DNA of 32,000 nucleotides from Clostridia bacterium (GTDB lineage: Bacteria; Bacillota; Clostridia; TANB77; RGIG9151), in assembly GCA_017934955.1 (NCBI GenBank), contig JAGBIO010000003.1, positions 1 to 32,000 on the forward strand. Reading direction: 5' to 3'. The translations under genes and the position numbers were made by a program. Position 1 is the first letter of the stretch. Every line of letters begins with the position of its first letter. Positions 261 to 31,536 of the stretch are shown one piece after another. The notes beneath the pieces are model-generated. The model was given only the letters and a program-made list of their open reading frames with translations. It searched no databases and was not told the origin of the DNA.

Positions 261-346
261 ATTTCTAAATTCTACGAATCTTTCTCAGGATAACAGGAAT
301 GCAATTCTACCTTTTTTACAAATACATTTCATTCAGCCTATTCTGT

Positions 347-370
347 GGACACCATGAATGGTGTCCCTAC
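347..370. repeat. Solo REP-like hairpin, stem variant ACACCA (ggacaccatgaatggtgtcc + ctac)
   Basis: 8-bp stem, 4-nt loop and a CTAC tail. Same architecture as the ACAGCA family elsewhere in the window. Confidence 0.75.
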
Positions 371-422
371 AAGTTTCTGCTTTTATTTCGTTAGAGTTTA
401 ATCGTTCATCTCTTGACTTAAT

Positions 423-546
423 GACATTGAGTCAGACTTAGATTTATAAAAATAGCACAAACACTGTAGGAGCACCATGAATTGTGTTCCTACAGTGTTT
501 GTGCCGATATTTTTTGAAAGCTACAAGGTTATAGTCTGAATTGTAA
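423..546. repeat. Collapsed single-hairpin copy of the MITE-like element
   Basis: Arms tcagacttagatttataaaaatagcacaaacactgtagg and cctacagtgtttgtgc...atagtctgaattgtaac align to the arms of the full copies at 6703 and 19257. Only one degenerate hairpin (466-492) lies between them. Confidence 0.65.
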
Positions 547-553
547 CGTGTTT

Positions 554-1330
554 TTAATGAATATGATAGTGTAAATTTTGTGAGCTTTTTTGTTTGATTA
601 AGGCTTTGTAATATTTCATATCGTTACTGTTGTAGTGCATATATTCCAAATCTTTGATTAAACCGCTTGCGGTAAAGTAGTCTTTTTGCAGTATGGATAA
701 GTCAAGATTTAGTTTTTTTGAGTAGAGGTAGACATCCGGCAGTTCGAGGGCTGCGGAGATATAGGTAAGGAGTTTAGCTAAACCGGAGTTTACTTCTAAG
801 GAAAGTAGCGTATTATTGGAGGATAGCACTTTACATATATCTTTTAATGCTGCCGATAAATTATTCCTATAGATGTTTTTTAGAATACTCGGATAATTTA
901 AGATAATTTCGACGCTGTTTAAGTCGGATAAATAGATATTGTGGTGCATTACATCCATTAAGTAAGAATAGGATTCCGTATCTCTTTCGCAAATTAAGTA
1001 GGCGTCAAGCATTTTTTCAAATATCGAGGAATAAAAGTTGTTGACGCTGATTTTGGAAAAAGTTTTGGCTTTAATGTTTTTGGAAATGTAGCTTAGAATT
1101 TCTTGGGTAACCGGAGATATTTGAATTTTGTGCAAGAGAGAAATTCGTTGTCCCAAGCTAAGCGGAGTCGATGTAATTTCGTCGATATAGTCTGTCAGAA
1201 GCGCATACGCATTCTTATAAGCGGTATATTTATCTTTTAAAGATATACCGGAAGTATTTGCCGCTATTGTCATTTGATGAATGATTTCTAATTTTTTTTC
1301 ATAATCAAACAGTTTCATTTGTATCTCCAT
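554..1330 (-). CDS. Hypothetical protein, predicted all-helical, no family recognised
   Basis: 258-codon ORF with SD-like aaaggaaag upstream. A second in-frame ATG at 1318 is an alternative start. No motif recognised. Confidence 0.6.
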   Translation of the reverse strand: MEIQMKLFDYEKKLEIIHQMTIAANTSGISLKDKYTAYKNAYALLTDYIDEITSTPLSLGQRISLLHKIQISPVTQEILSYISKNIKAKTFSKISVNNFYSSIFEKMLDAYLICERDTESYSYLMDVMHHNIYLSDLNSVEIILNYPSILKNIYRNNLSAALKDICKVLSSNNTLLSLEVNSGLAKLLTYISAALELPDVYLYSKKLNLDLSILQKDYFTASGLIKDLEYMHYNSNDMKYYKALIKQKSSQNLHYHIH

Positions 1331-1421
1331 TTCTTTCCTTTGTTAGAAAAAGTCTTTTCAATAATATTATACTAATTTAAATGTTAAAGTAAAGGCTTGA
1401 CAATGCAAAAAAAATATAATT

Positions 1422-1590
1422 AGTTACAGGTCACAATATATCGGGACGTCGAGGACGCCGTCCCCTACAATGACGGTGCAATCATCGTAGGGACAGCATT
1501 CATGCTGTCCACAGAAAAGGCAGAAAAGAAGGACAGCATAAATGCTGTCCCTACAAGGATTATGTCATTATTATAGAAAGATATACCTTG
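1422..1590. mobile_element. MITE-like element with REPIN core plus extra GC-rich hairpin module
   Basis: Left end is gttacagg. The extra hairpin cgggacgtcgaggacgccgtcccctac lies at 1442-1468. The core is GTAGGGACAGCATTCATGCTGTCC - acagaaaaggcagaaaagaa - GGACAGCATAAATGCTGTCCCTAC (1487-1554). The right arm is degenerate and runs into the ytxC-like stop codon. Confidence 0.8.
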
Positions 1591-1595
1591 ATTCT

Positions 1596-2426: not shown

Positions 2427-2765
2427 TTTTTCGCCTCCGAAGGTTTATTTGAGGTTATAGGTTCTCTTGAAGTATATTAATAGCGCATATATTATAATAT
2501 GTTGCGATTTATAGTATTGCCAATGTTGCGGCAAAATATATTTCAAATCTCAGAATAGTTATCGGCATATGTTGTGAAACCTTAACTGAAATTTGACGAC
2601 AAAAAAATCTTTTTTTTTTGTTTTAATTATCTTTTATATTTACAAATTCGTTTATTTTTATTACAATAAAAAAGAATTATCGTTTAGGCAAATATTGCAT
2701 TTGTTCAATATTTATACTTTTAGAAAAAATGTTTAAAAATACAGTTAGAAGAGGGGAGCAATAAA

Positions 2766-4100: not shown

Positions 4101-4220
4101 TTAAAATTATTAGGCGAGGGTGATTACCCCCGCCTAATTCAATTGTTGCTATAAACTTCGATGTAAATTTGTCGATTTATATATGGAAAGCATTCAACAT
4201 TTTAACAAGGAGGTAGTCTA

Positions 4221-6659
4221 ATGAAAGCAATTATTATGGCAGGAGGCGCAGGTTCTCGATTGAGACCTCTTACGTGTGGGAGACCTAAGCCTATAGTACC
4301 GATTATGAACAAGCCTGTAATGGGAAGAATTATTGAATTATTGAAGAAAAACGGGATTACAGATATTGGTGTAACGCTTCAGTTTCTACCGGAAAAAATT
4401 GAAAATTTGTTTGGCGACGGAAGTGAATGGGGAGTAAATATTCAATATTTTATTGAAGATTCTCCTTTGGGTACTGCAGGAAGCGTTAAAAACGCTGAAG
4501 AATTTTTGGATGATACGTTTGTGGTAATCAGCGGTGATGCTTTGACGGATATCGATTTGTCGAAAGCGATTGCGTTCCATAAGGCGAATAATACCATTTG
4601 TACCTTAGTTTTGAAGGAAGTTGCGGTTCCGTTGGAATATGGTGTTGTTATGACGGACGATAACGGTAAAATTGTTCGTTTCTTGGAAAAGCCGAGTTGG
4701 GGGGAAGTATTCAGTAATCTTGCGAATACCGGTATGTACATATTGGAACCGAAGGCTTTGTCTTATTTTGAGAAGAATAAGAAATTTGACTTTAGTCAAG
4801 ATTTATTCCCGCTTTTAATGAATGAAGGAAATGACTTGTACGGCTATGTAACAACCGATTATTGGTGCGATGTGGGAGATATCGGTTCTTATATTCAATC
4901 GCATATTGATATTCTTGAGAAGAAAGTAAATATTGATTTGTCTTCGGAATTTACCAACAAAAACGGTGTATTTATCGGAAAGAATGTAGAAATTGATCCG
5001 ACGGCTGTGATTACGGCGCCGGCGGTTATCGGAGATAATTGTAAAATCGGTAAGAATGTTCAGATTCAAGAATATACCGTATTAGGTGAAAATGTAACGG
5101 TAGACGAGAATGTAACGATTAAAAGAGGAATTGTTTGGCAGAATACACACATAGGTTCCAATACTCGCATGAGTGCCGGTATTTTGTGTTATGGAAATAA
5201 TGTGAAGTCGAATGTGGCGATTTTAGAGGAAGCAGTCATCGGGGATGAATGTCAAATCAAGGATCGTGCGGTAATCAAATCCGGGGTTAAGATTTGGCCG
5301 AACAAGATTATTCAAACCGCTACCGAAGTGAATGAGAGTATTATTTGGGGAACGAAAGTAAGCAGAACGTTGTTTGGAAAGACCGGAATTACCGGTGAGA
5401 TGAATGTAGAGATTACGCCGGAATATGTGGTAAAACTTGGTTTGGCGTATGCTTCAATTTTGAAGCCAAATAGTAAATTGGCAGTTTCTGCGGATAGTTC
5501 TGCAGCGGCTTCTTTATTGAAAACTTCTGTTTTATCGGGCGTTGCGTCTGCCGGTGTGGAAGTGTTTGATTTGGGACATACCATGCTTCCGATTGTACGA
5601 AATGTGATTAATTTCTTTGGTTTTGATGGTGGAATTCATATCTCTTTTGAAAAACAGAATGAGGATCGTATTCGAATTAATTTCTTGGATAATAAAGGAA
5701 TTAATATTACAAGAGGAATTGAACGAAAAATTGAAAATATGTTTGTGACCGGAGAATTCAGACGTGTAAATGTGGATAAGATTAAGGAAACAAACATGTT
5801 GGAAAATTACAATTATTTCTATTTACAGAATTTGATGAATACACTTGATTTGGAGGCAATCAGAAGAAATAATGTGAAAGTAGTTGTTGGAAAGTGTGAT
5901 AGTTTTGTATATGAAATGATGGAGAAAATCTTGCGCGATTTGAATTGTACCGTTATTAACGAGAGACGGGACAGTGGCGAAGATAACTTAAATATTTTGA
6001 GCCAAAAAGTAGTGAACAGCGGAGCTGCGTTAGGTATTCAGCTTGCGGCGGATGGCGAGAGAATGACCTTGATTGATGATAAGGGTCAAGTGATTAAGGG
6101 CGATTTATATACGGCATTGTTATCCATTATCTCCGTAAAGTTGAAAGAAGCGAACCAAATTGTGGTTCCGTTTACGACAACAGAAGTAATGGAACAAATT
6201 GCGACGAAGTTTAATACGGGAATTATTCGTACCAAAACCAGTCAGCAAGAACATATGAGCAAGTTGATGGAAAATTCCAATACCGATGTGAAGAAAAACT
6301 TTATTTTGAATTATGACGTTTTTGCGGCTACAGCGAAAATTATTAATTATATTTCTAAGGAAAATACAACCCTTTCAGCGCTTGTGAAATCGATTCCGGA
6401 ATTCCATACGACGAAGAAGAATATCGATTGTCCTTGGGATGCAAAGGGCAAAGTAATGAGAGCGTTAACACAAGAAAAGGTAGACAATACCATGGAATTG
6501 TTTGAAGGAGTAAAAATTCACCTTGATAAAGGCTGGGTATTGGTGTTGCCGGATGCGGATGAGCCGGTTTGTACGGTTTACAGCGAAGGGGTTTCGGCAG
6601 AAGTTGCGGAGTCGCTTTCGGAAATGTATGTGGATAAGATTAAACATATTATTCAATAA
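4221..6659 (+). CDS. Sugar-1-phosphate nucleotidyltransferase fused to a left-handed beta-helix and a degenerate PGM/PMM-like domain
   Basis: N-terminus [18 protein letters not shown]...PKP is the NTP-transferase signature. Hexapeptide-like repeats occupy residues about 250-360. The C-terminal half has phosphohexomutase-like layout but altered catalytic motifs (see findings). SD aaggagg present. Confidence 0.85.
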
Positions 6660-6702
6660 GAGAAAACCGGACGTCATTTTTAACAAAGAAGATGCTAAAT
6701 TT

Positions 6703-6856
6703 GTTACTATTCAAACTTAAAATTATAAAAATGGCACAAATACTGTAGGGACAGCATTTATGCTGTCCACGGAAAAGGTAGAAAGTAGGACAGCATGAAT
6801 GCTGTCCCTACAATGGTTGTACCATTATTGTAGGCGATATAGTTTGATTAGTAACC
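6703..6856. mobile_element. Complete 154-bp MITE-like element with REPIN core, inserted in a terminator loop
   Basis: Ends gttactattcaaact / agtttgattagtaacc. Core hairpins at 6745-6768 and 6788-6811. Flanking direct repeats taaattt (6696-6702) and taatttt (6857-6863). Confidence 0.85.
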
Positions 6857-6877
6857 TAATTTTGAGCATCTTTTTTG

Positions 6878-6907
6878 TTGAAAAAAGTAGAAGGTTGTTG
6901 CTATAAT
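6878..6907 (+). promoter_or_regulatory. Candidate sigma-A promoter of the thioesterase gene
   Basis: TTGAAA (6878-6883), 18-nt spacer, TATAAT (6902-6907), about 37 nt upstream of the ATG. Confidence 0.5.
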
Positions 6908-6943
6908 AGAAAGGAAGTCAAATAAATTTCGGAGATGGGATGA

Positions 6944-7372: not shown

Positions 7373-7419
7373 TCTTATAGTTCAAGCTCAATTTCTTTAC
7401 AATGATGAAAATTAATGAA

Positions 7420-7547
7420 GGGGCGACTATTAGTCGCCCGATGTAGAATGTGTATTGGGCGATTAATAATCGCCCCTACGTCTTTGTTGTCGCACGAGAA
7501 AAAAATTATATAGTAACAATTATACCTTATTGAGTCTGAATTGTAAC
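7420..7547. repeat. REP-like doublet with GCGA stem variant, plus an element end fragment
   Basis: Hairpins ggggcgactattagtcgccc (7420-7439) and gggcgattaataatcgcccctac (7457-7479). The terminal motif gagtctgaattgtaac lies at 7532-7547. Confidence 0.6.
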
Positions 7548-7578
7548 GGTAGAGTAAATTCTTTGGAAGAGGAGTTCG

Positions 7579-8685: not shown

Positions 8686-8741
8686 ACGTTTTCATTTTCT
8701 GTAGAGAATGGAAACGCTCCCGATAGAAAATTAACTTAAAT

Positions 8742-11712: not shown

Positions 11713-13617
11713 ATGGGCAAAACGTATTTTAACGATGGAATTACGGGGAATGGAAAATTGCTTGTTTCTTTTACGGATAAAGGGGAAGCGAATCGTGTTT
11801 TTTGGCCGGTGCAAGATTATGCACAGCAGATGAATCATATTTGGATGGGTTTTAAATTTGACGATTCTGTGACGAAGTTTTTGCATGAGAATTTATGGTA
11901 TGTGGAACAGTTTTATGATGGAAAAAGTAATGTATTGGTGACGAGTTACGAGAATTCGGATTTTGGCTTGAAGATTCTGCAGAAGGATTTTGCATTAAAT
12001 GATAAGGATGTATGGGTTCGTCATTATGAGGTGACCAATATTTGCGATCGTGATCTGTATTTGAGGGCGTTTTTGCATACGGATTTTATAACGGCGGACC
12101 ATAATGTTCGCAGTGGAATGATGGATTTTTCTTCGAATTGTGCGGTAATTTATAATAAGGAGCATACGGTTGCAATCGGTTCGGGCGAGAAACTTGCCGG
12201 ATTTCAGTTTGGAAATGCGATGAATGCTGCGGTTAATGATTGTTTGTATGGAAAAGATGAGATTTCCATGACGTCGGATATGGCGTTAAAGTGGGAATTT
12301 GGTGTTTTGGCTCCGAAGAAAAAAGTAGAATTCAGTGTATTTTTCTGTTTCTCTTATGATTGCTCAGATGCAATTGCTTTATTCAATGAAACAAAAAACG
12401 AGAAGGGAAACTTTTTAATAGAGTGTGAGAAGAAGTATTGGGAAGAGGAGTTTCGGAAGTATAATAAATTTGTTACGGGAAATGAAAAGGTTGATGATGT
12501 GTATTTTAAGTCGATTTTGACTTTTAAACTTTTAACAAATGCGGATACCGGGGCGATTTTGGCGGCGGTGGAAGTGGATGAGAATTTTACGCGGTGCGGT
12601 CGCTATGGGTATTGCTGGCCACGTGACGGTGTGTTTATTACAAAAGCATTTGATTTGTGTGGAATGACAGAAGAGGCGGAGCGTTTTTATACGGTCTGGG
12701 CGAAAAAGGCACAGCTTGCAAATGGGGCATGGCAGCAGCGGTATTACTTGGATGGAAAGTTGGCTCCTTCATGGGGAATTCAAATTGATGAAATTGCGGC
12801 GATTATTTATGGGGCCTGGAGTCATTTTGAGCACACGAGAAAATTGAGCTTTTTGGAGGAAATTTGGAGTTCGATAAAGCCGGCAGCGTTGTATCTGATG
12901 AATCATATAGATGGAGAGACGGGGCTTCCGATGGCGTCTTATGATTTGTGGGAAGAGCGTTTTGGGGAGCATACTTATTCGGCGGCTTCTGTGGTGGCGG
13001 CGCTACGGTGTGCGGCGTTTATGGCGGAGGAGCTTAAAGTGGATATTCCGCTTGCAAATTTGTGGAAAAAGGAAGCGGATAAGATAAAGGAAAGCATTCT
13101 TCGTAATTTATGGAATGAGGATGAAAAGAAGTTTTTAAGAGGAATCAGAACGAGATTGAATTGGTGGAATTGTGAGACGGTTTCTCTTCCAACGAATGAA
13201 ATGGGCTATCGGATGGATGTTGCGGCTGTGGATAACATTGTGGATATTAGTTTATTGGGGCTGACCATTCCGTTTGATGTGTTTGCTGTGAAGGATGAGA
13301 AGATAAAGAGAACGGTTCGGGCGATTGAAGATCGATTAGATGGTTTCCCTGCCGGCGGATTCGGGAGATATGAGTATGATTCGTATATCGGTGGAAATCC
13401 TTGGGTTATTTCGACGCTGTGGTTGGGATTATATTATGCAGAAATCGGAGAAGTTGAGAAGTGTAAGGAGAAGCTGATGTGGGCGGTAAAAAATGCGACG
13501 AAGCTTGGATTTTTACCGGAGCAGGTGGACAAGTTTAATGGCGGACCTGCTTGGATTATGCAGCTTGCTTGGTCAAGCGCGATGTTTATTATTACGTTAT
13601 ATGCGTTAAAGAAATAA
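11713..13617 (+). CDS. Glycoside hydrolase family 15 (glucoamylase/glucodextranase/trehalase-like), cytoplasmic
   Basis: Motifs YGYCWPRDGVF and SYDLWEERFGEHTYS are typical of the GH15 (alpha/alpha)6 domain. I prefer the ATG at 11713 (GGAGG 8 nt upstream) over the track TTG at 11653. No signal peptide. Confidence 0.85.
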   Translation: MGKTYFNDGITGNGKLLVSFTDKGEANRVFWPVQDYAQQMNHIWMGFKFDDSVTKFLHENLWYVEQFYDGKSNVLVTSYENSDFGLKILQKDFALNDKDVWVRHYEVTNICDRDLYLRAFLHTDFITADHNVRSGMMDFSSNCAVIYNKEHTVAIGSGEKLAGFQFGNAMNAAVNDCLYGKDEISMTSDMALKWEFGVLAPKKKVEFSVFFCFSYDCSDAIALFNETKNEKGNFLIECEKKYWEEEFRKYNKFVTGNEKVDDVYFKSILTFKLLTNADTGAILAAVEVDENFTRCGRYGYCWPRDGVFITKAFDLCGMTEEAERFYTVWAKKAQLANGAWQQRYYLDGKLAPSWGIQIDEIAAIIYGAWSHFEHTRKLSFLEEIWSSIKPAALYLMNHIDGETGLPMASYDLWEERFGEHTYSAASVVAALRCAAFMAEELKVDIPLANLWKKEADKIKESILRNLWNEDEKKFLRGIRTRLNWWNCETVSLPTNEMGYRMDVAAVDNIVDISLLGLTIPFDVFAVKDEKIKRTVRAIEDRLDGFPAGGFGRYEYDSYIGGNPWVISTLWLGLYYAEIGEVEKCKEKLMWAVKNATKLGFLPEQVDKFNGGPAWIMQLAWSSAMFIITLYALKK

Positions 13618-13820
13618 GGGACAGCATGAATGCTGTCCGTACAGGAAGGAAGAAATGCGTTTGTAGGGACAGCATTTATGCTGTCCACAGAAAAGGCGGA
13701 AAAGCGGGACAGCATGAATGCTGTCCGTACAGGAAGGAAGAAATGCGTTTGTAGGGACAGCATTTATGCTGTCCACAGAAAAGGCGGAAAAGCAGGACAG
13801 CATGAAAGCTGTCCCTACAG
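13618..13820. repeat. Tandem array (about 2.3 x 88 bp) of REP hairpins filling the GH15-radA gap
   Basis: gggacagcatgaatgctgtccgtac recurs at 13618 and 13706 (and, with two substitutions, at 13794). gtagggacagcatttatgctgtcc recurs at 13662 and 13750. Five hairpins in total. Confidence 0.9.
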
Positions 13821-13856
13821 GAAGGAAGACTGTAAAATAAAACGAAGGAGGTTCTT

Positions 13857-15224
13857 ATGGCGGTAAAGGTTAGCAGTATGTTTTTTTGTAACAATTGTGG
13901 TTATGAATCTCCGAAATGGCTTGGGAAATGTCCGGCGTGTAATGAGTGGAATACCTTTGTGGAAGAGAAAGTGACAAAGGATAAAAAGACGGGTTTGGTG
14001 CGAGAGCAAAGTGACGCGAAAATTGTGAAATTAAAGGATATCCAAATTGAGTTGGGACAGCGTTTTGAGACCGGGTTTTCTGAGTTGAATCGTGTTTTGG
14101 GCGGTGGTTTGACGAAGGGGTCATTGACTTTGGTTGGTGGTGATCCCGGAATTGGAAAGTCTACTTTGATTTTGCAAATGTGTGATAAAATTCAATGTGA
14201 CGGAACGGTTTTATATATTTCCGGAGAAGAGTCTGGAAGCCAGATTAAGATGAGGGCGGAACGTCTTGACATCAATAATGAAAAGATTTTGTTTTTGGGA
14301 GAAACGGATATAAATTTGATCGCGGAGAAGTTAAAGGAGAATAAACCGGAGTTATTGATTATTGATTCGATTCAGACGATGTACGATCCGACGATGGAGT
14401 CAACGGCGGGGAGCGTTGGTCAGGTAAGAGCGGTTACCGGTCGGTTTATGGAAATTGCGAAAAAACAGGGTATTACGACGATGATTATCGGGCATGTAAC
14501 GAAGGAAGGGGCAATCGCGGGTCCTCGTGTTTTGGAGCATATGGTGGATACGGTGCTGTATTTGGAGGGAGAACGGTATTTCTCTTATCGTATCTTACGT
14601 GCGGTAAAGAATCGGTTTGGTTCGACGAATGAAATCGGAATTTTTGAGATGAAGGAGTCGGGTTTGGCGGAGGTTACCGATCCGACGCAGATTATGATTT
14701 CTGAGAATAAAAATGCGGCAGGTTCGGCGGTTATCTGTACGTTAGAGGGAACACGACCGATGTTGGTGGAGTTGCAAGCGTTGGTTTCTACGACGCCGTT
14801 TGGAATGCCGAGACGTATGGCGACGGGAGTGGATTATAACCGTGTGACGCTGTTAACAGCGGTTTTGGAGAAGAAGACAGGGCTTAATTTGTATAATCAA
14901 GATATTTACTTGAATGTCGTTGGCGGAATTCGCTTGAATGAGCCGGCAGTGGATTTGGGTGTTGCGGCGTCTGTCATTTCGGGATTTCGAAATCGACCGA
15001 TTAAACCGGGTGGCGTGATGATTGGTGAGGTTGGTTTGACGGGAGAAGTCAGAGGTGTCAGCATGATTGAGAAGCGGATTTATGAGGCGGAAAAAACCGG
15101 ATTTCGGTATTGTGTGATTCCCAAAAGTAACTATAAAAATTTGGAGAATAAATTTCAAATTGAGATAATTGATGTGGAGAATTTACATGATTTGATGGAA
15201 AAAGTATTCTGCGATGAGCGATAG
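13857..15224 (+). CDS. radA: DNA repair protein RadA/Sms
   Basis: Zinc finger CNNCGYESPKWLGKCPACNEWNTF, Walker A GDPGIGKST, KNRFG motif (AVKNRFGSTNE) and a Lon-like C-terminal domain. SD gaaggagg present. Confidence 0.95.
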   Translation: MAVKVSSMFFCNNCGYESPKWLGKCPACNEWNTFVEEKVTKDKKTGLVREQSDAKIVKLKDIQIELGQRFETGFSELNRVLGGGLTKGSLTLVGGDPGIGKSTLILQMCDKIQCDGTVLYISGEESGSQIKMRAERLDINNEKILFLGETDINLIAEKLKENKPELLIIDSIQTMYDPTMESTAGSVGQVRAVTGRFMEIAKKQGITTMIIGHVTKEGAIAGPRVLEHMVDTVLYLEGERYFSYRILRAVKNRFGSTNEIGIFEMKESGLAEVTDPTQIMISENKNAAGSAVICTLEGTRPMLVELQALVSTTPFGMPRRMATGVDYNRVTLLTAVLEKKTGLNLYNQDIYLNVVGGIRLNEPAVDLGVAASVISGFRNRPIKPGGVMIGEVGLTGEVRGVSMIEKRIYEAEKTGFRYCVIPKSNYKNLENKFQIEIIDVENLHDLMEKVFCDER

Positions 15225-15225
15225 A

Positions 15226-15249
15226 GGACAGCATGAATGCTGTCCGTAC
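15226..15249. repeat. Solo REP hairpin 1 nt after the radA stop
   Basis: ggacagcatgaatgctgtcc + gtac. Confidence 0.8.
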
Positions 15250-15359
15250 GGGTTTGAAAAATAAAAAACAAATGGATAAAATTGCAGGATGCGTAAGAGG
15301 GAAGATTGATAAAATTGCACTGTGTGGCACTTATGGTGTCCATGAAAGGGATGATTTGG

Positions 15360-16573: not shown

Positions 16574-17065
16574 ATGTTTAATATTGGCGACAGAGTAGTA
16601 TATCCGATGCATGGTGCAGGAGTGATTGAATCAATCGAGGAAAGAGAGATTTTAGGTCAAAAACAAAAATATTACATAATGAAGATGCCTGTTGGTGATA
16701 TTCAAGTTATGGTACCTACAAATAATGCTCAAGAAGTAGGAATGAGAGAAGTTATTCAATGCAAAGATGCGGACCGTGTATTGAATGTTTTATCCGGCGA
16801 ACGCACAGAGATGAATGCTAATTGGAATAAGCGTTACAGAGAAAATATGGATAAGATTAAGAGCGGAAATATATTTGAGGTTGCAGAAGTTGTAAAAAAT
16901 TTGGCTTATAAGAATAATGAGAAGGGCTTATCTGCCGGAGAGAAAAAGTTATACAACAGTGCAAAGCAGATTTTAATTAGTGAATTGGTTTTGGCTAATC
17001 AAGCGTCAAAAGATGAAATAGAGAGCTTGGTAGAGGAAAAATTGAGTTTACATGAAGCAAACTAA
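16574..17065 (+). CDS. carD: CarD/CdnL family RNA-polymerase-binding regulator
   Basis: N-terminus MFNIGDRVVYPMHGAGVIESIEE is the CarD_CdnL_TRCF signature. GGAGG lies 8 nt upstream of the ATG at 16574. The track start at 16547 is probably an over-extension. Confidence 0.85.
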   Translation: MFNIGDRVVYPMHGAGVIESIEEREILGQKQKYYIMKMPVGDIQVMVPTNNAQEVGMREVIQCKDADRVLNVLSGERTEMNANWNKRYRENMDKIKSGNIFEVAEVVKNLAYKNNEKGLSAGEKKLYNSAKQILISELVLANQASKDEIESLVEEKLSLHEAN

Positions 17066-17081
17066 GTGAATGGAAGCAATG

Positions 17082-17110
17082 GTAGGGACAGCATTTATGC
17101 TGTCCTTTTG
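17082..17110 (+). terminator. REP hairpin followed by a T-run, probable carD terminator
   Basis: gtagggacagcatttatgctgtcc followed by ttttg, 17 nt after the carD stop. Confidence 0.55.
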
Positions 17111-17146
17111 CGTATACAATAGAAAATATTGATTCAAGCCTTCTTT

Positions 17147-17173
17147 CGGGACGTCGAGGACGCCGTCCCCTAC
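17147..17173. repeat. Solo GC-rich REP variant (cgggacgtcgaggacgccgtcccctac)
   Basis: Identical to the module at 1442-1468 and near-identical to 31378-31404. Confidence 0.8.
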
Positions 17174-19229: not shown

Positions 19230-19256
19230 AAATAACAATGACGCAAGTCTTTATTA

Positions 19257-19410
19257 GTTACTATTTAGACTATATCTCTTAAAATAATGGTACAATCTTT
19301 GTAGGGACAGCATTTATGCTGTCCGCAGAAAAGGCGAAAAGCAGGACAGCATAAATGCTGTCCCTACAGTGTTTGTGCTATTTTTATAATTTTAAGTCTG
19401 AATGGTAACC
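19257..19410. mobile_element. Complete 154-bp MITE-like element with REPIN core
   Basis: Ends gttactatttagact / agtctgaatggtaacc. Core 19301-19366. Flanking direct repeats tttatta (19250-19256) and tttattt (19411-19417). Confidence 0.85.
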
Positions 19411-19428
19411 TTTATTTTGTAATGTTTT

Positions 19429-20415
19429 TTACACGCCTTCACCGGGCATGAAGAGTTCTTGAAATTTACGGATGGCGTAATGGTCAGTCATCCCGGCGAT
19501 GTAGTCGCAGATGACACGATGTTGCCCGCAACGTAACAGCATGTTTTTGAATTCTTCCGGTAATTCTAATGTGTTTTCTAAAAAGTAGTAATAAAGCCAT
19601 TTTATGACAGACCCGGCTTTCACTTCTTCTGTTTTGGCACGGGAGGCAAGATAGACTTTGTCAAACATAAATTCTCTTAAATCCCACATGGCTTTATAGA
19701 TTTCATCTGACATTGAGATGATATTTTTATCTTTAGAATGTTCAATAATATCGAGGACCATGGAGTTGATGCGTTCGCTTGACGTCGCCCCTAAAAGTTT
19801 AACGCAATGTTCCGGTAAATCGCTATCATGAATAAGTCCTGCTCGTTTTGCATCGTCAATGTCGTGATTGACATAGGCGATTCGGTCGGCAAACTTGACG
19901 ATTTGTCCTTCTAAAGTTTTCGCCATATTTGCTCCGCTGTGGTTGATAATCCCGTCTCTGGTTTCCCAAGTTAAATTTAGGTTTTCCAAGACGTCTACGA
20001 CTCTTAGACTTTGTTCGTTATGCTTAAAGCCTTCGTCGTAAAGTTCGTCAAGGATTTTTTCTCCGATGTGTCCGAAAGGCGTGTGTCCTAAGTCATGCCC
20101 AAGTGAAATTGCTTCGGTTAAATCTTCGTTTAGGTGTAGCGCACGAGCGACGGTTCTTGCGATTTGAGATACTTCAAGTGTGTGCGTGAGTCGTGTACGA
20201 TAGTGATCTCCCTCCGGTGCGATGAACACCTGCGTTTTATGTTTTAAACGTCGAAAGGCTTTTGAGTAAATGATTCTGTCCTTATCTCGCTGAAATTCCG
20301 TGCGGATATCACATTTTTCTTCGGGGAGCAATCTGCCTTTTGTTTCGGCACTTTTTGCAGCAAATGGAGAAAGAGTCTGTTTTTCAAATTCTTCTTGTTC
20401 TTCGCGTAATGTCAA
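19429..20415 (-). CDS. dGTPase-like HD-domain triphosphohydrolase
   Basis: HD motifs [17 protein letters not shown] and [14 protein letters not shown] start with SD aaggaggg 7 nt upstream. Confidence 0.85.
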
Positions 20416-20444: not shown

Positions 20445-20603
20445 GTTACAGTTCAGATTGAAATTTTGTATCTAAAAATATTGTCGGAATGTGGCTTGTA
20501 GGGACACAATTCATTGTGTCCTAATTCCAATGTCAGGTTATTTTGTGGACACAATAAATTGTGTCCCTACAGGGTTTGTGCTGACTCTATAAATTGAATC
20601 TAA
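20445..20603. repeat. MITE-like element, ACACAA stem subfamily, right end degenerate
   Basis: Left end gttacagttcagattg. Hairpins gtagggacacaattcattgtgtcc (20498-20521) and ggacacaataaattgtgtccctac (20547-20570) are separated by a 25-nt spacer. Confidence 0.75.
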
Positions 20604-20638
20604 TCTATAAGATATTTTATCATATCTATATTAAAAAC

Positions 20639-20676: not shown

Positions 20677-20904
20677 TTACCTCAGCCGAGGTTTGATTCG
20701 AGAAGGAAACAGGAGCGTGCCGCATTTGCCGCAGGAGGGGTGTTCTTCGTGTTCCCCTTTGACATACACGATTTTGTTCCCGCTGGCTTCGTCGCAGCAG
20801 AGCTGCGGCTTGCCGTTGATTTCTTTCATGTAGATGCCCGGGTGGGTACACTTAGGAGTTACGTAGGTGGTGCCGGATTCGCCGGTAATGTTCCAAGTTT
20901 CCAT
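20677..20904 (-). CDS. Small (75 aa) cysteine-rich protein, possible zinc-ribbon, family not recognised
   Basis: METWNITGESG...PKCTHPG...LCCDE...PSCGKCGT. SD aaaggagagg lies 5 nt upstream of the ATG at 20904. The gene has its own promoter and terminator and is markedly more GC-rich than its surroundings. The track TTG at 20946 is probably an over-extension. Confidence 0.7.
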   Translation of the reverse strand: METWNITGESGTTYVTPKCTHPGIYMKEINGKPQLCCDEASGNKIVYVKGEHEEHPSCGKCGTLLFPSRIKPRLR

Positions 20905-21001
20905 ATGTTCCTCTCCTTTTTCACGTCTTTTATGATTTGGGAGCAATTTGCTCCGAGCGACCGGAGGATTATCCTCCTATGCAAATTCTTGCATTATAAT
21001 C

Positions 21002-22933: not shown

Positions 22934-22935
22934 TT

Positions 22936-24027: not shown

Positions 24028-24043
24028 TTTTGGAGTGAGATTT

Positions 24044-24268: not shown

Positions 24269-24283
24269 TTTCCTCTTTTTTTC
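24245..24283. terminator. Bidirectional Rho-independent terminator
   Basis: 11-bp stem agaggaaatca / tgatttcctct with loop gtgaa, an A-run upstream and T6 downstream. It lies between convergent genes. Confidence 0.85.
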
Positions 24284-24288
24284 TCAGA

Positions 24289-26816: not shown

Positions 26817-26838
26817 TTTTCTGAAAATCACCTCAACT

Positions 26839-27822
26839 CTAAGTTTCATACTTTTTTTTCTTTCGTGTAAACACAAAAAATTTAGTTAATAAAAAGGTAA
26901 TCGGAATTCCGATAATCGCCGCTAACGTGTAAGCAATCAGTTTGTCCCAATGTAGGATGTTGTAGATGATAACGACGCAGAGGTTTTGGATCATAAAGTT
27001 CGGTATGTAAGCAATCGCAAATTTGATAAATTTCATAAAAGATAATGTTTTATCCTGAAAGGTAATCCGACTGTTGAGTAGGTAGGAAATACATAAGCTA
27101 AGCAGATATCCTAACACAAAAGCTGTATTTGGGTCAGCGAAAGCATTAAACAGCATGGAAAAGAGAATTCCGTTAAAGGTATTGATACAACCTACAAAAA
27201 GAAAGAGAAGAAATTGTTTTGAGAAGAAATTCTCTAAGAAAAGTTCTGTTTTGCTTTTTTGGTAACTGTCCCATGCAATCATTTTTTCTTTTTTGACGAT
27301 AAAGGCATTTTGCGCCAATTCTTTTAACGGAGTATCGGAGAAAGAATCTGAGTAAAAGGTATCGATTTTTCCTTCCGTTTCTTTTGCTAAAAATTCCGTC
27401 ACTTTTTGCATTCCGTAACAATTTTCTCCGGTTATTGTTCCGGTCGTTTTATTCATATTTGTGGCAATCAGATTCGGTTGGTTGATTTCTTTTAAAACCG
27501 GCTGAAGGAGGAAGGTAGGGGAGGCGGAGATGATATAGTCGGAGGAAGAAATTCTTTCTGTTAATTCTTTCCGAAGGTGCTTCGATTCCTTTTTCCAAAA
27601 CGCATCTAAGTAAGAATCGATATCTTTGATTCCCTTTAAAAAAGAGAAAAAATTTTCCTTCCATTCTTTTTTCGGAATGAACCCCAAAATATATTTTGTA
27701 AGCGAAAGACATTGCTTTGGCAGATATCTTAACAAAAGTGGATTTTTGCGAAGAGAAAACAAGTAAAAATTCACTGTAGAATCGCCCTGATACAATGTTT
27801 TATCAAAATCGTAAACGTTCAT
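26839..27822 (-). CDS. HAD-superfamily phosphatase fused to a GtrA-like membrane domain
   Basis: HAD motif I YDFDKTL at the N-terminus and FYSDSFSDTPL (motif IV-like). The C-terminal 130 aa has four TM helices typical of GtrA. I prefer the ATG at 27822 (aaggag 5 nt upstream). The track start at 27894 reads through the repeat element. Confidence 0.8.
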   Translation of the reverse strand: MNVYDFDKTLYQGDSTVNFYLFSLRKNPLLLRYLPKQCLSLTKYILGFIPKKEWKENFFSFLKGIKDIDSYLDAFWKKESKHLRKELTERISSSDYIISASPTFLLQPVLKEINQPNLIATNMNKTTGTITGENCYGMQKVTEFLAKETEGKIDTFYSDSFSDTPLKELAQNAFIVKKEKMIAWDSYQKSKTELFLENFFSKQFLLFLFVGCINTFNGILFSMLFNAFADPNTAFVLGYLLSLCISYLLNSRITFQDKTLSFMKFIKFAIAYIPNFMIQNLCVVIIYNILHWDKLIAYTLAAIIGIPITFLLTKFFVFTRKKKKYET

Positions 27823-27835
27823 AAAAACTCCTTTT

Positions 27836-28107
27836 TTATTGTATAGGTCAGAATTAAATTTATAGAAATAGCATAAATAGTGTAGGAACAGCATTTATGC
27901 CGTCCACAGAAAAGGCAGAAAGCAGGACAGCATTGCGGACGTAACACCGTGAGTGTAACGAACGGCTTGTACGTCCTATACAAAGAAACTCCAAGAACGT
28001 AGTGATTGGGAAGTTTCGACTGTTAATGCTGTCCCTACAATGGTTGTACCATTATTGTAGGAGATATAGAACAGTAACAAAAACTGAAGATTTTGCCTAT
28101 ACAACAA
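27836..28107. repeat. Composite: family-2 hairpin interrupted by a MITE/REPIN copy that itself carries a 90-bp nested insert
   Basis: ttattgtatagg (27836-27847) | MITE 27848-28078 | aaaaactgaagattttgcctatacaacaa (28079-28107). The second REP hairpin is split at 27933/28024. Confidence 0.8.
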
Positions 28108-28131
28108 CGAAAATACAATAGTTTGTTCTAC

Positions 28132-28995
28132 TTAATTCCAATAAGGAAGAATGTAAATCAGTGTAAAAATAGTCGCACCGTATAATAAAACAAGTAAAAA
28201 TAAGAAACGATCGTGAAGTAGAGTGGAAACCGGATCGCCGTCGGAAATTCCTTCGACGGTTAAACTATATTTCATGCAGATAATCATTACAAGCGGGACT
28301 GTCCACATGATATGCGGTATCAATTCCACCGTATCGATGCACCACATTGCATAAAAGACAATCGTGAGTGCGACACAAACATACATATTTTTATCTAAAA
28401 AGTTTTTGTTGTATTTTGAAAGCACTTTTCTTGTACCGGTTTCGTTCTTCAAAACTTCATTTCGTCTTTTTCCAAGTCCGAGGTAGAAGGACATTGCCAT
28501 TACCGTAAGATACAGCCAGTCGGAGACAGCAACATTAATTAATGCAGCCCCAAAGAAAACACGGAGAATAAATCCGACGGATAAAACCGCAATATCAATA
28601 ATCGGCACGTTTTTTAAGTAGAAGGAATAGAGGAGGTTTAGAATTAAGTAAGTAAGGATAAGCGGATGCGGTAGAAAGGAGGAGAAGCAAATATAATTTA
28701 GACTTATTATCAAAATAGTTAATACTAATATAAATATTACGGCTTGTGTTTTGCTGACTCTTCCCGAGGCAATCGGGCGATTCTTTTTGGTCGAATGGTT
28801 TCTGTCTTTTTCGGCGTCGAAGATATCGTTTAAGATATAGACAATTGAGCAGGCAAGCGAAAATAAAATAAAGCCAAAGAATGTTTTTTTCAATAATTCC
28901 GGTTGCAGTAAGTTACGGCTGAAGAGGAGTGGCAGGAAAATCAAGCCGTTTTTGATATAATGTTTGATTCTCATTAATTTTATATAGTCTTTCAA
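28132..28995 (-). CDS. UbiA-family prenyltransferase resembling decaprenyl-phosphate phosphoribosyltransferase (DPPR synthase)
   Basis: Motif NDIFDAEKDRNHSTKKNRPIASG follows the ND..D...DR.H.TK..RPIA.G pattern that I associate with the Rv3806c-type subfamily. N-terminus MRIKHYIKNGLIF. TTG start with a weak SD. Confidence 0.75.
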   Translation of the reverse strand: MKDYIKLMRIKHYIKNGLIFLPLLFSRNLLQPELLKKTFFGFILFSLACSIVYILNDIFDAEKDRNHSTKKNRPIASGRVSKTQAVIFILVLTILIISLNYICFSSFLPHPLILTYLILNLLYSFYLKNVPIIDIAVLSVGFILRVFFGAALINVAVSDWLYLTVMAMSFYLGLGKRRNEVLKNETGTRKVLSKYNKNFLDKNMYVCVALTIVFYAMWCIDTVELIPHIMWTVPLVMIICMKYSLTVEGISDGDPVSTLLHDRFLFLLVLLYGATIFTLIYILPYWN

Positions 28996-29022
28996 TTTAT
29001 TTCAATCCTTTCTGATGCTTTT

Positions 29023-29078
29023 GGACAGCATAAATGCTGTCCCTACGAAGTTCTATACAGACAGCATTTATGCTGTCC
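29023..29078. repeat. REP hairpin pair in the LtaS-like/UbiA intergenic gap
   Basis: ggacagcataaatgctgtccctac (29023-29046) and gacagcatttatgctgtc (29060-29077). The pair ends 4 nt from the upstream gene stop. Confidence 0.85.
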
Positions 29079-29082
29079 GATT

Positions 29083-30906
29083 CTACGATAATGTTGCATC
29101 AATCAATTTTTTCCCATGCAAATAATCGTACTGGGTATATTTGTACTGTTTTAACAGCGGATTATTTAAGAAATCCGGTTTTCCTATGTAGTCGCCGTTT
29201 TCATCGCAGGCAAAGTACGGATGAATAACGGTGTAATTAGCGTAAATTTTATTAAATAATTTCGAATACCAAGGAATATTGGTAAGGTTCGCAGTCATGA
29301 GTGTTTTTAATCCTAAGTTTGCAGGGCTGATTCGTTTCGGATAAATGGTTTTATCTAACGGGAAATTTGCCCAAACAATATACGGTGTTTCAAACATTGC
29401 CGGATTTTCCGAAAGTTCGCCGGAAAAGAAGCCGGTATGAATATAGGTACTGCTGTCAATTCCCAAGAATGGCAGATGATCGCCGTATATAGTAATTAAA
29501 GTCGGTTCACCGACGTTTTTGAAATATTCCGTTAAGGTATAAAAGGATTGGTCGATGTCGTAGATTCCTTGTACGGCATCTTTTAATCCGGCTAATTCTT
29601 CGTCGGTGACTGCGTCGGATGTGACATCGATATCGTAACTGTCATAGCGTTTTTCTAAATAATTTCCGTGATTTTGCATGGAAATGGCATAAATAAAAAT
29701 CGGTTCTTCCTCTTTTTCTTCGAAGGTCTTAATGATTTGCCGTGTTAATTCCATGTCGGAAATGTAGATTCCTTTTTTCTCGGGATTTTCAAAGTCCTTA
29801 TCTCCGTAAAATTCCTCGAATCCCATTAGATCATAGGCGGTATCTCGATTATAAAATTTCTTATCATAGGTATGTAAAGCTGTCGTGGAATAGCCTTCCG
29901 ATTGACAGATAGAAGCAAGCGAAATCGTCGGTTTTAGGATGTATTGACTGTACGGATAACTTCCAACCGGAAGAAAGGCAGAGGAAAATCCTGTCAGAAA
30001 CTCAAATTCCGGAATACAAGTATTACAACCGTAAGATGGAGAAACAACTTGTCCTGCCGGAAAGGTTTTCCCTAAACGATGAATATTCGCAAGAGGATCG
30101 GCAGATAGCGTAATGTTTGGCATTAAAGTCGGGTCCCAAAGACTTTCGCTCTGAATAGCGATAATATTGATTTTTTCTGTTTCTTCTTCCACCGGATAAT
30201 ACTCTTCGATGTCGTTATTGGCAAAAAGAATATTCGACATAGTTTCTTGGTTATAGTTTTGATAAGGTGCGACTCTTAAATCTCCGATTCTTGTGAAAAA
30301 GGTTAAGATCAGTCCGTTTTTGTTGTAGTCGTTGATAATATAAAAGTTCGACAAAGGAACTCCCAATTTCGGCAAAAGTTCATGCCGAAAGGAATAATTA
30401 AAGCAAAAACAATACAAAACCGTAACGCATAGCACAAAACTGCCAAGCGTCTTTGGAACAGAAAAACGCAGGCGGTCGCTCTTTTTATAAAGGTAAGTGT
30501 AAACAATCAGGTGTGCAACAAGAATAATCGCGGAAATCACCATATAGCGATCTACCGGAACTTTTATAAAACTTACGATATCTTCTAATTTTCCCGCCAA
30601 TAATAAATTCGCCGGTAACAACGGATCCGAGGTAATTCGTATTTTAATCCGACAAACAATTGCCATGATAAAGAAAAACAAATTAATCGTATAAAAGCTG
30701 ATAATTTGTTTCTTAAACAGGTTTCCAAGAAAAATTTGCAAAGCAGAAATAAACAAGAAGGATAAGGCAGTGTTCATCAGAAGTTGTAGCGGTGTATTAA
30801 AAGAAAGCGGTGAATTTCCGCCAAACCGAAGGATATCTAAAAGAAAAACGGTAATAAGCGGAGAGATATAATAATAAATTCTTTCCAAAGAAATTTTTTT
30901 CGTCAT
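29083..30906 (-). CDS. LTA-synthase/sulfatase family membrane protein (LtaS-like)
   Basis: An N-terminal polytopic region is followed by an extracytoplasmic sulfatase-type domain with GCNTCIPEFEFLTG (Thr nucleophile motif G..T...EFE.LTG). I prefer the ATG at 30906 (ggag 7 nt upstream) over the track start at 30969. Confidence 0.8.
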   Translation of the reverse strand: MTKKISLERIYYYISPLITVFLLDILRFGGNSPLSFNTPLQLLMNTALSFLFISALQIFLGNLFKKQIISFYTINLFFFIMAIVCRIKIRITSDPLLPANLLLAGKLEDIVSFIKVPVDRYMVISAIILVAHLIVYTYLYKKSDRLRFSVPKTLGSFVLCVTVLYCFCFNYSFRHELLPKLGVPLSNFYIINDYNKNGLILTFFTRIGDLRVAPYQNYNQETMSNILFANNDIEEYYPVEEETEKINIIAIQSESLWDPTLMPNITLSADPLANIHRLGKTFPAGQVVSPSYGCNTCIPEFEFLTGFSSAFLPVGSYPYSQYILKPTISLASICQSEGYSTTALHTYDKKFYNRDTAYDLMGFEEFYGDKDFENPEKKGIYISDMELTRQIIKTFEEKEEEPIFIYAISMQNHGNYLEKRYDSYDIDVTSDAVTDEELAGLKDAVQGIYDIDQSFYTLTEYFKNVGEPTLITIYGDHLPFLGIDSSTYIHTGFFSGELSENPAMFETPYIVWANFPLDKTIYPKRISPANLGLKTLMTANLTNIPWYSKLFNKIYANYTVIHPYFACDENGDYIGKPDFLNNPLLKQYKYTQYDYLHGKKLIDATLS

Positions 30907-30998
30907 TTGTACGCTCCAATCCTCGACAAAATATATAAATATTGTAATATATTTGGCGAGAAATTGCAATTCGAATGTTGTGTAAATGAGTATAGAAA

Positions 30999-31116
30999 GT
31001 TACAATTCAGAATCTAATTTATAGAGGAAGCACAAACGCTGTAGGGACACAATTCATTGTGTCCCCAAAATAGGCAGATGCTTAGAATTAGGACACAATG
31101 AATTGTGTCCCTACAA
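30999..31116. repeat. MITE-like element, ACACAA stem subfamily, right arm truncated
   Basis: Left end gttacaattcagaatc. Hairpins at 31041-31064 and 31091-31114. The spacer is the diverged reverse complement of the one at 20522-20546. Confidence 0.75.
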
Positions 31117-31140
31117 TAGATTGAGAAACATTTAATGTAC

Positions 31141-31179
31141 ATAAAAAAGAGAATTGCAAGATTTTGCAATTCTCTTTTT
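31141..31179 (-). terminator. Terminator downstream of tRNA-Ser (bidirectional shape)
   Basis: 13-bp stem aagagaattgcaa / ttgcaattctctt with loop gatt, flanked by A/T runs. Confidence 0.8.
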
Positions 31180-31270
31180 TGGCGGAAAGAGGGGGATTCG
31201 AACCCCCGGTACCTGTTACAGTACGCACGCTTTCCAAGCGTGTGCCTTAAGCCAACTCAACCATCTTTCC
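31180..31270 (-). tRNA. tRNA-Ser (anticodon GGA), long variable arm, CCA encoded
   Basis: The reverse complement reads GGAAAGA-TG-GTTGAGTTGGCTTAAGGCAC-ACGC..TTGGAAA..GCGT-long variable arm-GGGGG-TTCGAAT-CCCCC-TCTTTCC-G-CCA. The anticodon loop is ttGGAaa. Confidence 0.9.
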
Positions 31271-31342
31271 GTGCTAGCTTTTTTATGATACTACAAGTTA
31301 AGATTTTTTTCAAGAGATAAATTGAAATTTGTGTTGGAAAAT

Positions 31343-31536
31343 GTTACAGGTTAGACTCAAAATTGTCTCAAATATATCGGAACGTTGGGGACGCCGTCCC
31401 CTACAATGTTTGTACAGGTATTGTAGGGACAGCATTTATGCTGTCCTGCTTTTCTGCCTTTTCTGTGGACAGCATGAATGCTGTCCCTACAATGATTGTG
31501 CCATCATTGCAGAAAAATGTAGTATGAATAGTAACC
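31343..31536. mobile_element. Complete 194-bp MITE-like element with extra GC-rich hairpin module and inverted core
   Basis: Ends gttacaggttagact / tatgaatagtaacc. Extra module at 31378-31404. Core at 31421-31490 with spacer tgcttttctgccttttctgt. Flanked by a perfect direct repeat ggaaaat (31336-31342 and 31537-31543). Confidence 0.85.

Follow-up and report, generated by a model that had tools for sequence, protein, structure and literature searches.

Repetitive extragenic palindromes (REPs) beginning with GTAG, the bacterial interspersed mosaic elements (BIMEs) built from them and the inverted REP doublets known as REPINs are among the described systems closest to the repeats reported here. 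In E. coli, both the GTAG and the hairpin are needed for binding and cleavage by TnpA-REP, which cuts at C|T and has been proposed to amplify BIMEs (PMC3333891). The REP-associated subclasses of such tyrosine transposases (RAYTs) were found mainly in Proteobacteria, Cyanobacteria and Bacteroidetes in a 2018 survey (PMC6006769), with subclass 2.4 (Bertels' group 4), which has REPs within the transposase gene and 'double-foot' REPs as its traits (PMC6006769), being scattered over many phyla (PMC6006769, PMC5581495). Here we analyzed a stretch of 32,000 nucleotides from a Clostridia bacterium (contig JAGBIO010000003.1, positions 1 to 32,000 of the forward strand), hereafter called the window, for which an initial annotation had described many GTAGGG-headed, REP- or REPIN-like hairpin repeats. 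Its remark that such repeats are known mostly from proteobacteria agrees with the available part of the 2013 survey of GTAG families, which adds Cyanobacteria, Chloroflexi and the PVC group and contains no Firmicutes (PMC3733652). We found the window to hold a dispersed, non-coding unit that has defined termini and 8-bp target duplications, is polymorphic among relatives and contains hairpins with compensatory pairing. With moderate confidence, we interpret these repeats as non-autonomous mosaics of RAYT-derived REP modules, for the most part packaged in a miniature inverted-repeat transposable element with terminal inverted repeats (TIR-MITE) that is moved by a staggered-cut transposase acting in trans.

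The hexamer GTAGGG occurs 27 times on the two strands of the window, as compared with 5.73 ± 2.23 times in shuffled sequences (maximum 13). Hairpins with at most one mismatch are headed by 22 of these sites, one more (28033) heads a hairpin that is split by an insertion, and four (9137, 9658, 10603 and 27515) are ordinary coding sequence; beyond the 22 GTAG hairpins, three further copies carry a GTAC head. Together the repeats make up 14 loci, all intergenic, with a total of about 1.9 kb or about 6 % of the window, thereby reproducing the first estimate of 14 loci, about 1.8 kb and about 6 % (1.8–1.9 kb by our count). Of the 15 intergenic gaps that exceed 100 bp, 10 contain repeats, as do two shorter gaps, so that the initial wording of 'almost every' such gap was overstated.

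The hairpin itself, first described as GTAGGG followed by an 8–9 bp stem and a 4-nt loop, is better parsed as GTAG immediately 5' of a 9-bp stem (GG-AC-NNN-AT) that is closed by a 2-nt TY loop (TT or TC). The five stem versions noted at the outset were all recovered, together with every coordinate given for them. Type A, with the stem GGACAGCAT (ACAGCAT/ATGCTGT), is found in 15 copies with at most one substitution (e.g. 6745–6811), type B, GGACACAAT (ACACAAT/ATTGTGT), in four copies (20498–20570 and 31041–31114), and type B', GGACACCAT (ACACCAT), in a single copy (347–370). Type C, GGGACGGCG/CGACGTCCC, has a 4-nt loop and three copies (1443–1468, 17148–17173 and 31379–31404), while type D, with the stems GGGCGATT and GGGGCGAC (GCGAyTA), is confined to one doublet at 7420–7479. 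Each step of the series from A through B' to B exchanges one base pair on both strands. When 14 distinct hairpins from the window and other genomes were compared, pairing was kept in 98.4 % of cells, a percentage that is partly due to ascertainment because the set came from a hairpin finder and is thus biased to paired sequence, and both sides changed at 7 of the 9 pairs, with none of 500 shuffles reaching as high. The covariation first read as selection on structure is thus present, and covarying stems with a constant head do fit a structural constraint, but they fit self-copying subfamilies equally well. Head-to-head doublets of the module have spacers of 19–26 nt and tail-to-tail junctions have 18-nt linkers. 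The sequence features of the GTAG REP superfamily are all seen, namely a GTAG unpaired at the foot of the stem, a short stem with a G+C foot and a short loop (2–4 nt), complementary stem changes, and an organization in head-to-head and tail-to-tail dimers together with a tandem mosaic cluster having alternating linkers.

The inverted doublets, initially given as the usual arrangement of the hairpins, are real, but the repeated unit is larger. Similarity among the aligned copies runs about 42 nt beyond the doublet on each side and ends exactly at 5'-GTTAC and GTAAC-3', the termini being GTTACnnTTCAGAnT and its complement, with similarity stopping at the terminal G. The units are 153–193 bp long and have no coding capacity, which together with the terminal repeats is as expected for a TIR-MITE. 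Both termini are intact in three units. The 153-bp element at 6703–6855 consists of a GTTAC arm, a type A doublet (6745–6768 and 6788–6811, with a 19-nt spacer) and a second arm ending in GTAAC; the element at 19257–19409, also of 153 bp, has its type A doublet at 19301–19324 and 19344–19367; and the 193-bp mosaic at 31343–31535 is composed of a GTTAC arm, a type C hairpin (31379–31404), an 18-nt linker, a type A doublet (31423–31446 and 31467–31490) and an arm ending in GTAAC. All three are flanked by direct 8-mers that abut the termini and match each other at 7 of 8 positions, these being CTAAATTT (6695–6702) and CTAATTTT (6856–6863), CTTTATTA (19249–19256) and CTTTATTT (19410–19417), and TGGAAAAT (31335–31342) and CGGAAAAT (31536–31543). 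When intergenic 8-mers of the window are paired at random, the probability of a match at 7 or more of 8 positions is 0.0014 per pair, and the joint chance of three is about 3e-9. A staggered target cut of 8 bp is the outcome of DDE-type chemistry, while to our knowledge HUH/Y1 transposition, as by IS200/IS605 or TnpA-REP enzymes, leaves no target duplication. The intact long copies, with their target duplications of a fixed 8 bp, therefore behave as TIR-MITEs and depart from the REPIN–RAYT system in that target duplication is a feature of all three. The initial REP/BIME/REPIN reading thus holds for the hairpin module, but the best-preserved copies are 153–193 bp units with 8-bp duplications and not bare REPINs.

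As single strands, the full units fold into one long hairpin, with folding energies of -42 kcal/mol for DNA (z = -12.4 relative to shuffles) and -75 kcal/mol for RNA (z = -13.8). The doublet lies at the core of this hairpin, giving the REPIN structure of two inverted REPs within one fold, and the doublet alone is a putative replicating unit. Comparing the two 153-bp copies, we found the hairpins to be 24/24 and 23/24 identical and the arms 82–90 % identical (best orientation), the hairpins therefore being the most constrained or homogenized part of the element. The 19-nt spacer of 19257–19409 matches that of 6703–6855 only in the orientation opposite to the arms (13/19 vs 1/19); it is flipped relative to the arms, either because the inverted hairpins recombined with each other or because the doublet was inserted independently.

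Seven further loci carry doublets or hairpins with arms in various states of preservation. Type B doublets with arms are found at 20445–20610 (about 166 bp, hairpins 20498–20521 and 20547–20570, 25-nt spacer), where the right terminus is degenerate, and at 30999–31140 (hairpins 31041–31064 and 31091–31114, 26-nt spacer), where the left terminus GTTAC is intact and the right arm degenerate. The type D doublet with arms at 7376–7547 consists of GGGGCGACTATTAGTCGCCC (7420–7439) and GGGCGATTAATAATCGCCCCTAC (7457–7479) and ends in GTAAC at 7543–7547; at the orthologous site, the close relative L100, described below, has a decayed arm. A type A doublet with arms at 27842–28078 has its left hairpin at 27882–27905, and foreign DNA of about 87 nt (27934–28022) is inserted in the loop of the right one (27925–28038), splitting it. 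The mosaic at 1423–1590 starts with a GTTAC terminus and a type C hairpin (1443–1468), which a tail-to-tail linker of 18 nt joins to a type A doublet (1487–1510 and 1531–1554), with a degenerate right arm at the end. Near the left end of the window, a 'double-foot' element at 425–547 has one hairpin with GTAG on both sides (466–493, GTAGGAGCACCATGAATTGTGTTCCTAC) between two arms and a right terminus GTAAC at 543–547, and the single type B' hairpin on the minus strand at 347–370 (GTAGGGACACCATTCATGGTGTCC) is accompanied by a degenerate arm downstream.

The four remaining loci lack arms and lie right behind stop codons. The BIME-like tandem cluster at 13618–13829 begins immediately (0 nt) after the stop codon of the GH15 gene and consists of 2.4 copies of an 88-bp unit that are 97 % identical, with five type A hairpins in alternating orientation, two linker types and two GTAC heads. 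A lone type A hairpin, headed by GTAC, is located 1 nt past the radA stop codon (15226–15249, minus strand), at a site that lacks it in relatives; the locus at 17082–17173 has a type A hairpin (17082–17105), which follows the carD stop codon by 16 nt, and a type C hairpin (17148–17173); and a tail-to-tail type A pair at 29023–29078, with one degenerated head, lies 4 nt past the stop codon of a sulfatase-family (LtaS-like) gene. The copies with GTAC in place of GTAG, at 13619–13642, 13707–13730 and 15226–15249 as well as at 4191–4215 of L100, form a sub-family of type A. The one 3' of GH15 is common to the window and L100, being decayed in the latter, and the GTAC copies directly behind stop codons may be immobilized copies retained as 3' hairpins.

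With regard to the enzymes, no transposase, integrase or Y1/HUH gene was found in the window using Pfam (20 open reading frames, ORFs) or our own RAYT hidden Markov model (HMM; all six-frame ORFs), in line with the initial statement that neither a RAYT-like nor any other transposase gene is present there. The HMM, made from the published RAYT/TIRYT alignment and applied to six-frame ORFs of the window and 18 further loci that carry the hairpin, gave nothing below E = 0.28, and a regular expression for HUH plus YxxxNP as well as tblastn with E. coli RayT also failed to detect a RAYT in these sequences. Protein searches seeded with RAYTs of similar REPtrons led to clades of Smithella, Thermodesulfobacteriota, Elusimicrobia and Armatimonadetes and not to this lineage, and context look-ups of RAYT homologues gave related REPtrons (L221 and L225), none of them with type A hairpins. 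A metagenome scan for RAYT relatives yielded many REPtrons. The RAYTs of two contigs, L085 and L053, show a YIANNPV motif and are flanked by several REPs composed of GTAGGG and 8–9-bp stems, with the stems differing, and in L221 (36 % G+C) the RAYT gene is found between REP doublets of the form GTAG-c-GGAACCCT-TY-AGGGTTCC. The RAYT of L225 scores 74 bits on NF047646 (NCBIfam REP_Tyr_transpos; cut-off 80, with the match split by an insert) and matches PDB 4ER8 (TnpA-REP). Its gene is preceded, 12 nt upstream of the start codon, by GTAGGGACACGGCATGCCGTGTCC, a second copy of which lies in frame within the gene. Although L225 is an unrelated metagenome contig, the first 10 and last 6 nt of its REP are as in type B of the window (GTAGGGACAC…GTGTCC). 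Because head and foot are shared in this way, a RAYT origin of the hairpin module of the window is plausible by analogy.

These findings bear upon a pure REPIN–RAYT account of the repeats, along the lines of the initial reading, by which every copy, long or short, would be a REP doublet and a single-copy RAYT encoded elsewhere in the genome would have copied them all, with the arms merely being part of an unusually long REPIN and the flanking 8-mers not being true duplications. The architecture of GTAG head, hairpin and doublet is as such an account would have it, the same head and foot occur beside and within the RAYT gene of L225, arm-less copies exist, and the tandem array fits the model of amplification by TnpA-REP (PMC3333891). 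However, we consider this account unlikely, as it would have to treat as coincidental the direct repeats placed exactly at the termini of all three intact copies, and as neither the window nor the 18 hairpin-carrying loci contain a RAYT. The lack of target duplication in HUH/Y1 transposition, as far as is generally known, also speaks against it.

We also asked where else the hairpin occurs. The exact type A 24-mer GTAGGGACAGCATTYATGCTGTCC was present on at least 17 contigs of nine metagenome-assembled genomes (MAGs), which among the matches listed were RUG103 ('Clostridiales', 63 % G+C), three Anaerolineae, one Phototrophicaceae, one Bacteroidales, one Patescibacteria, Clostridia RGIG9140 and RGIG8597 ('Spirochaetales', 35–37 % G+C), with RGIG8597 being the only one among these matches to have the arms as well as the 24-mer. 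The MAGs carrying the identical 24-nt hairpin (loci L002–L017) belong to at least five phyla and span 35–65 % G+C. The Patescibacteria MAG has one copy, in overlap with the stop codon of recG (L014, 4125–4148). RUG103 is rich in REPs and has the sister stems GGACGCCAT and GGACGGCAT, which are identical in head, loop and foot. From these sequences, the common denominator across phyla would be the family GTAG-GGAC-NN-CAT-TY-ATG-NN-GTCC, for which either horizontal transfer of one REP/RAYT lineage or convergence may be responsible. The 24-mer gave 0 matches in IMG/VR viral contigs, the full element had no BLAST match in plasmids or phages, and the terminus 15-mer gave 115 single matches in viral contigs, none of which extended further, as expected by chance. 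A literature search by repeat sequence returned unrelated primer matches only.

The distribution just described, together with the REPtrons, makes it doubtful that the repeats are an ordinary TIR-MITE derived from an insertion sequence (IS), having internal palindromes that resemble REPs by chance and no involvement of a tyrosine transposase at any time. Such an origin would account for the TIR-like termini, the 8-bp target duplication, the small size, the lack of coding capacity and the A+T-rich targets; relatives of the source genome bear other long palindromic MITEs, and MITEs with REP-like truncated copies have been described (review PMC10969869). Nevertheless, in genomes of several phyla the exact 24-nt hairpin is found without arms, as are sister stems that share its head, loop and foot, hairpins of the same type lie beside and within RAYT genes, no parent IS was found among plasmids, phages and viral contigs, and the hairpins are far better conserved than the termini, which is the opposite of what maintenance through terminal repeats only would give. 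We thus judge this explanation as quite improbable.

Relatives of the source genome gave information on the age of the family. The gene order GH15-radA-disA-carD is kept in five metagenomic or MAG relatives. The spacer between GH15 and radA, which in the window measures 239 bp and contains the REP array, is 93 bp in L100 (RadA 93 % identical) with two decayed REPs, GGATAGCTTGAATGCTGTCCGTAC and a weaker one, and amounts to 3 bp in L101 (82 %), 23 bp in L226 (83 %) and 20 bp in L102 (73 %). The hairpins found after radA and after carD in the window are absent from L100 and from the relatives at 82–83 %; in the gap after carD, L100 and L226 are devoid of REP hairpins and carry instead a hairpin followed by a T-run. 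No intact GTAGGG was seen in 8.5 kb of L100. The comparison of relatives that had been proposed for individual copies thus shows them decayed at 93 % RadA identity and absent at 73–83 %, and this pattern indicates that the repeat family entered before the split from L100, decayed in L100 and stayed sharp or expanded in the lineage of the window. Contigs from the source sample stop inside repeats, L001 at both ends and L105 at one (by gene coordinates), and Logan contigs that match proteins of the window are 1.3–3.4 kb long and end in repeats; contig ends inside repeats are expected if copies are numerous genome-wide. The relatives at 82–83 % RadA identity, having no repeats of the window family, contain near-perfect palindromic MITEs of their own of 130–220 bp, located in L101 at 6140–6612, 13076–13330, 15275–15497 and 16774–17081, with a central CCTAC-AGC-GTAGG junction, and in L226 at 6088–6561, 14539–14798 and 20138–20372.

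That the repeats should be non-mobile host hairpins, conserved for a function as terminators, stabilizers of mRNA 3' ends or protein-binding sites, is very improbable, since the flanks outside the hairpins are also conserved and have defined termini and target duplications, presence varies at syntenic sites among relatives, and the copies are not consistently oriented with respect to transcription and mostly have no U tract, even if the four arm-less loci lie 0–16 nt behind stop codons, nearly all copies are perfectly paired and five repeat sites pass a terminator-like scan in one orientation, e.g. 1552–1529 (-) and 31426–31447 (+). Termination as a general explanation was rejected on the inconsistent orientation of the spacers relative to transcription, and an artefact or adapter origin on the findings that the copies are diverged, lie in specific intergenic sites and have decayed orthologous counterparts in a relative.

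The interpretation that we favor, of RAYT-derived REP modules packaged in a TIR-MITE, can be outlined as follows. The building block is the module of GTAG and a 9-bp stem, two of which, head to head and 19–26 nt apart, form a doublet of the REPIN kind with the capacity to fold into one long hairpin; additional type C modules and tail-to-tail linkers give BIME-like mosaics and, in one case, a tandem array. Mostly, the doublet resides within the near-palindrome of 153–193 bp, and this long form inserted in A+T-rich intergenic DNA with duplication of 8 bp, as the sequence itself shows. The duplication argues for spread of the long form as a TIR-MITE by a staggered-cut transposase supplied in trans, probably an enzyme of the DDE type. 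A RAYT lineage would have made the GTAG hairpins in the first place and may still homogenize them, as well as give rise to the arm-less copies and the tandem array. The short copies located 0–16 nt past stop codons could conceivably serve as 3' hairpins of mRNAs.

Several points weigh against this interpretation. The evidence for the duplication comes from a small sample of just three copies with both termini intact, and the fourth unit, at 20445–20610, fits only after a shift by 1 nt (GATGTTT and GATATTT, 6/7). Furthermore, the window contains no RAYT or other transposase, about 110 kb of other hairpin-carrying loci contain no RAYT, and searches for a parent IS with GTTAC termini were negative or at chance level in plasmids, phages and viral contigs. 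The RAYT and the DDE-type enzyme are both putative for the source genome, and a picture with two enzymes is more complex than either simple model. As a tentative extension, which we rate as speculative and rather unlikely in full, a REP doublet of RAYT type might have been captured as the core of a TIR-MITE and so have acquired DDE-like transposition as another way to spread, or else a RAYT-family enzyme of this lineage might itself make 8-bp duplications; the same REP lineage (GTAGGGAC-NN-CAT-TY-ATG-NN-GTCC) would have crossed phyla in gut and rumen communities, with the identical 24-mer being found at 63 % and 37 % G+C.

The window is chromosomal DNA of an uncultured bacterium, with 37 % G+C and a strongly positive GC skew, and a 3.4-kb Logan contig from sample SRR12529200 is identical to its sequence. 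The best named relatives of its RadA are annotated as 'MAG: Clostridia bacterium' and are at most 73 % identical. Its housekeeping and other genes include ytxC, a GT4 glycosyltransferase, a sugar nucleotidyltransferase/phosphomutase fusion, a thioesterase, an acyltransferase, AlgX-like, MBOAT, GH15, radA, disA, carD, a beta-propeller protein, an HD phosphohydrolase, dnaG, sigA, mltG (YceG), PMT_2, GtrA/HAD, UbiA and sulfatase-family genes. The non-protein genes are those for 5S rRNA, tRNA-Asn and tRNA-Ser, and Rfam at gathering thresholds found the 5S rRNA and the two tRNAs and nothing else in the window. An ORF of 258 codons on the minus strand (554–1330), between two repeat loci, had no Pfam family at E<=0.01. 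Likewise, no Pfam match at E<=0.01 was obtained for a small cysteine-rich ORF (20677–20946, minus strand, 75–89 aa, C-x-n-CC...C-x2-C), which sits where the 718-bp gap upstream of dnaG is locally rich in G+C and is followed by a strong terminator-like hairpin (20669–20648).

Two observations concern the locus at 27842–28078. The minus-strand ORF 26839–27894 has its N-terminal 24 codons (27823–27894) read from the repeat element; this extension is probably spurious, the likely start being the ATG at 27822 (MNVYDFDKT...), which is preceded by AAAGGAG. The insert of about 87 nt at 27934–28022 contains two hairpins and interrupts a type A REP hairpin precisely at the loop; it reads GCGGACGTAACAC...TGTACGTCC-YATRCAAAG followed by a second variable stem-loop. 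A homologous insert, with the same motifs and compensatory differences in both stems, interrupts another palindromic MITE in L101, at about 16865–16950. The region 27850–28140 had no Rfam match in a scan at E<=1. This two-hairpin insert might represent a very small mobile element with repeat hairpins as its targets.

A dense and well-preserved GTAG-REP family in a Clostridia chromosome widens the host range of REPs, work on REPs, REPINs and domesticated RAYTs having been almost confined to Proteobacteria and Cyanobacteria. The unit, whose termini and target duplications are clear, also offers a concrete handle on how GTAG hairpins can spread, and the packaging of a REP within a MITE blurs the distinction between these two categories. 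In practical terms, the repeats break up short-read assemblies of this lineage and create spurious ORF extensions.

When the repeats are compared with known systems, the GTAG REPs and BIMEs (E. coli and the 24 GTAG families in the available part of the 2013 survey, PMC3733652) resemble those of the window in having GTAG at the foot of a 6–13 bp stem with a G+C base, loops that are often TY, complementary stem changes among subfamilies, head-to-head and tail-to-tail dimers, tandem clusters, and an extragenic location, often just 3' of genes. They differ in that the host of the window is a low-G+C member of the Clostridia, with no Firmicutes in that part of the survey (PMC3733652), and in that most copies in the window lie between arms of about 42 nt, their termini being defined and their target duplication 8 bp long. 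The stems in the window are perfect, unlike the target of E. coli TnpA-REP, where a mismatch in the stem is required (PMC3333891). REPINs (PMC3116915) share with the window two inverted REPs separated by a short spacer and forming one long hairpin, but not the long form with terminal inverted repeats and target duplications; they are also described as inherited vertically with their RAYT, whereas a relative of the window at 93 % RadA identity has decayed copies only. The element at 466–493 is of the 'double-foot' type known for REPs of RAYT subclass 2.4 (PMC6006769), and insertion of REPs within the transposase gene, a hallmark of that subclass (PMC6006769), is seen in L225, whose REP shares head and foot with the window.

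Among TIR-MITEs, we compared the unit with Chunjie of Geobacter uraniireducens, which according to the available description is 178–235 bp long and has 21-bp terminal inverted repeats and 9-bp direct repeats. Chunjie and QMITE2 of Coxiella are, as far as those accounts go, like the unit of the window in their length of 150–200 bp, terminal inverted repeats, flanking direct repeats, A+T-rich targets and very stable fold, and partial copies of such MITEs, without terminal inverted and direct repeats, resemble REPs (available part of the review PMC10969869). The unit of the window is set apart from them, on the same accounts, by different termini, a target duplication of 8 bp and a core that is a bona fide GTAG REP doublet, conserved above the level of its terminal inverted repeats. 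A GTAG unit fused into a longer inverted repeat of many copies, as in the window, is also found in the terminal inverted repeats of Pseudomonas putida and P. fluorescens (degenerate GTAG-1 units with unrelated stem-loops) and in those associated with TIRYTs, according to the available part of the 2013 survey (Di Nocera 2013, PMC3733652); unlike the repeats of the window, these flank a tyrosine-transposase gene, are proteobacterial and have no target duplication reported in that part of the survey (PMC3733652). By their sequence features, the hairpin module of the window would thus be placed in the GTAG REP/BIME superfamily and the long form among the TIR-MITEs, in a combination for which REP-related MITEs provide precedents.

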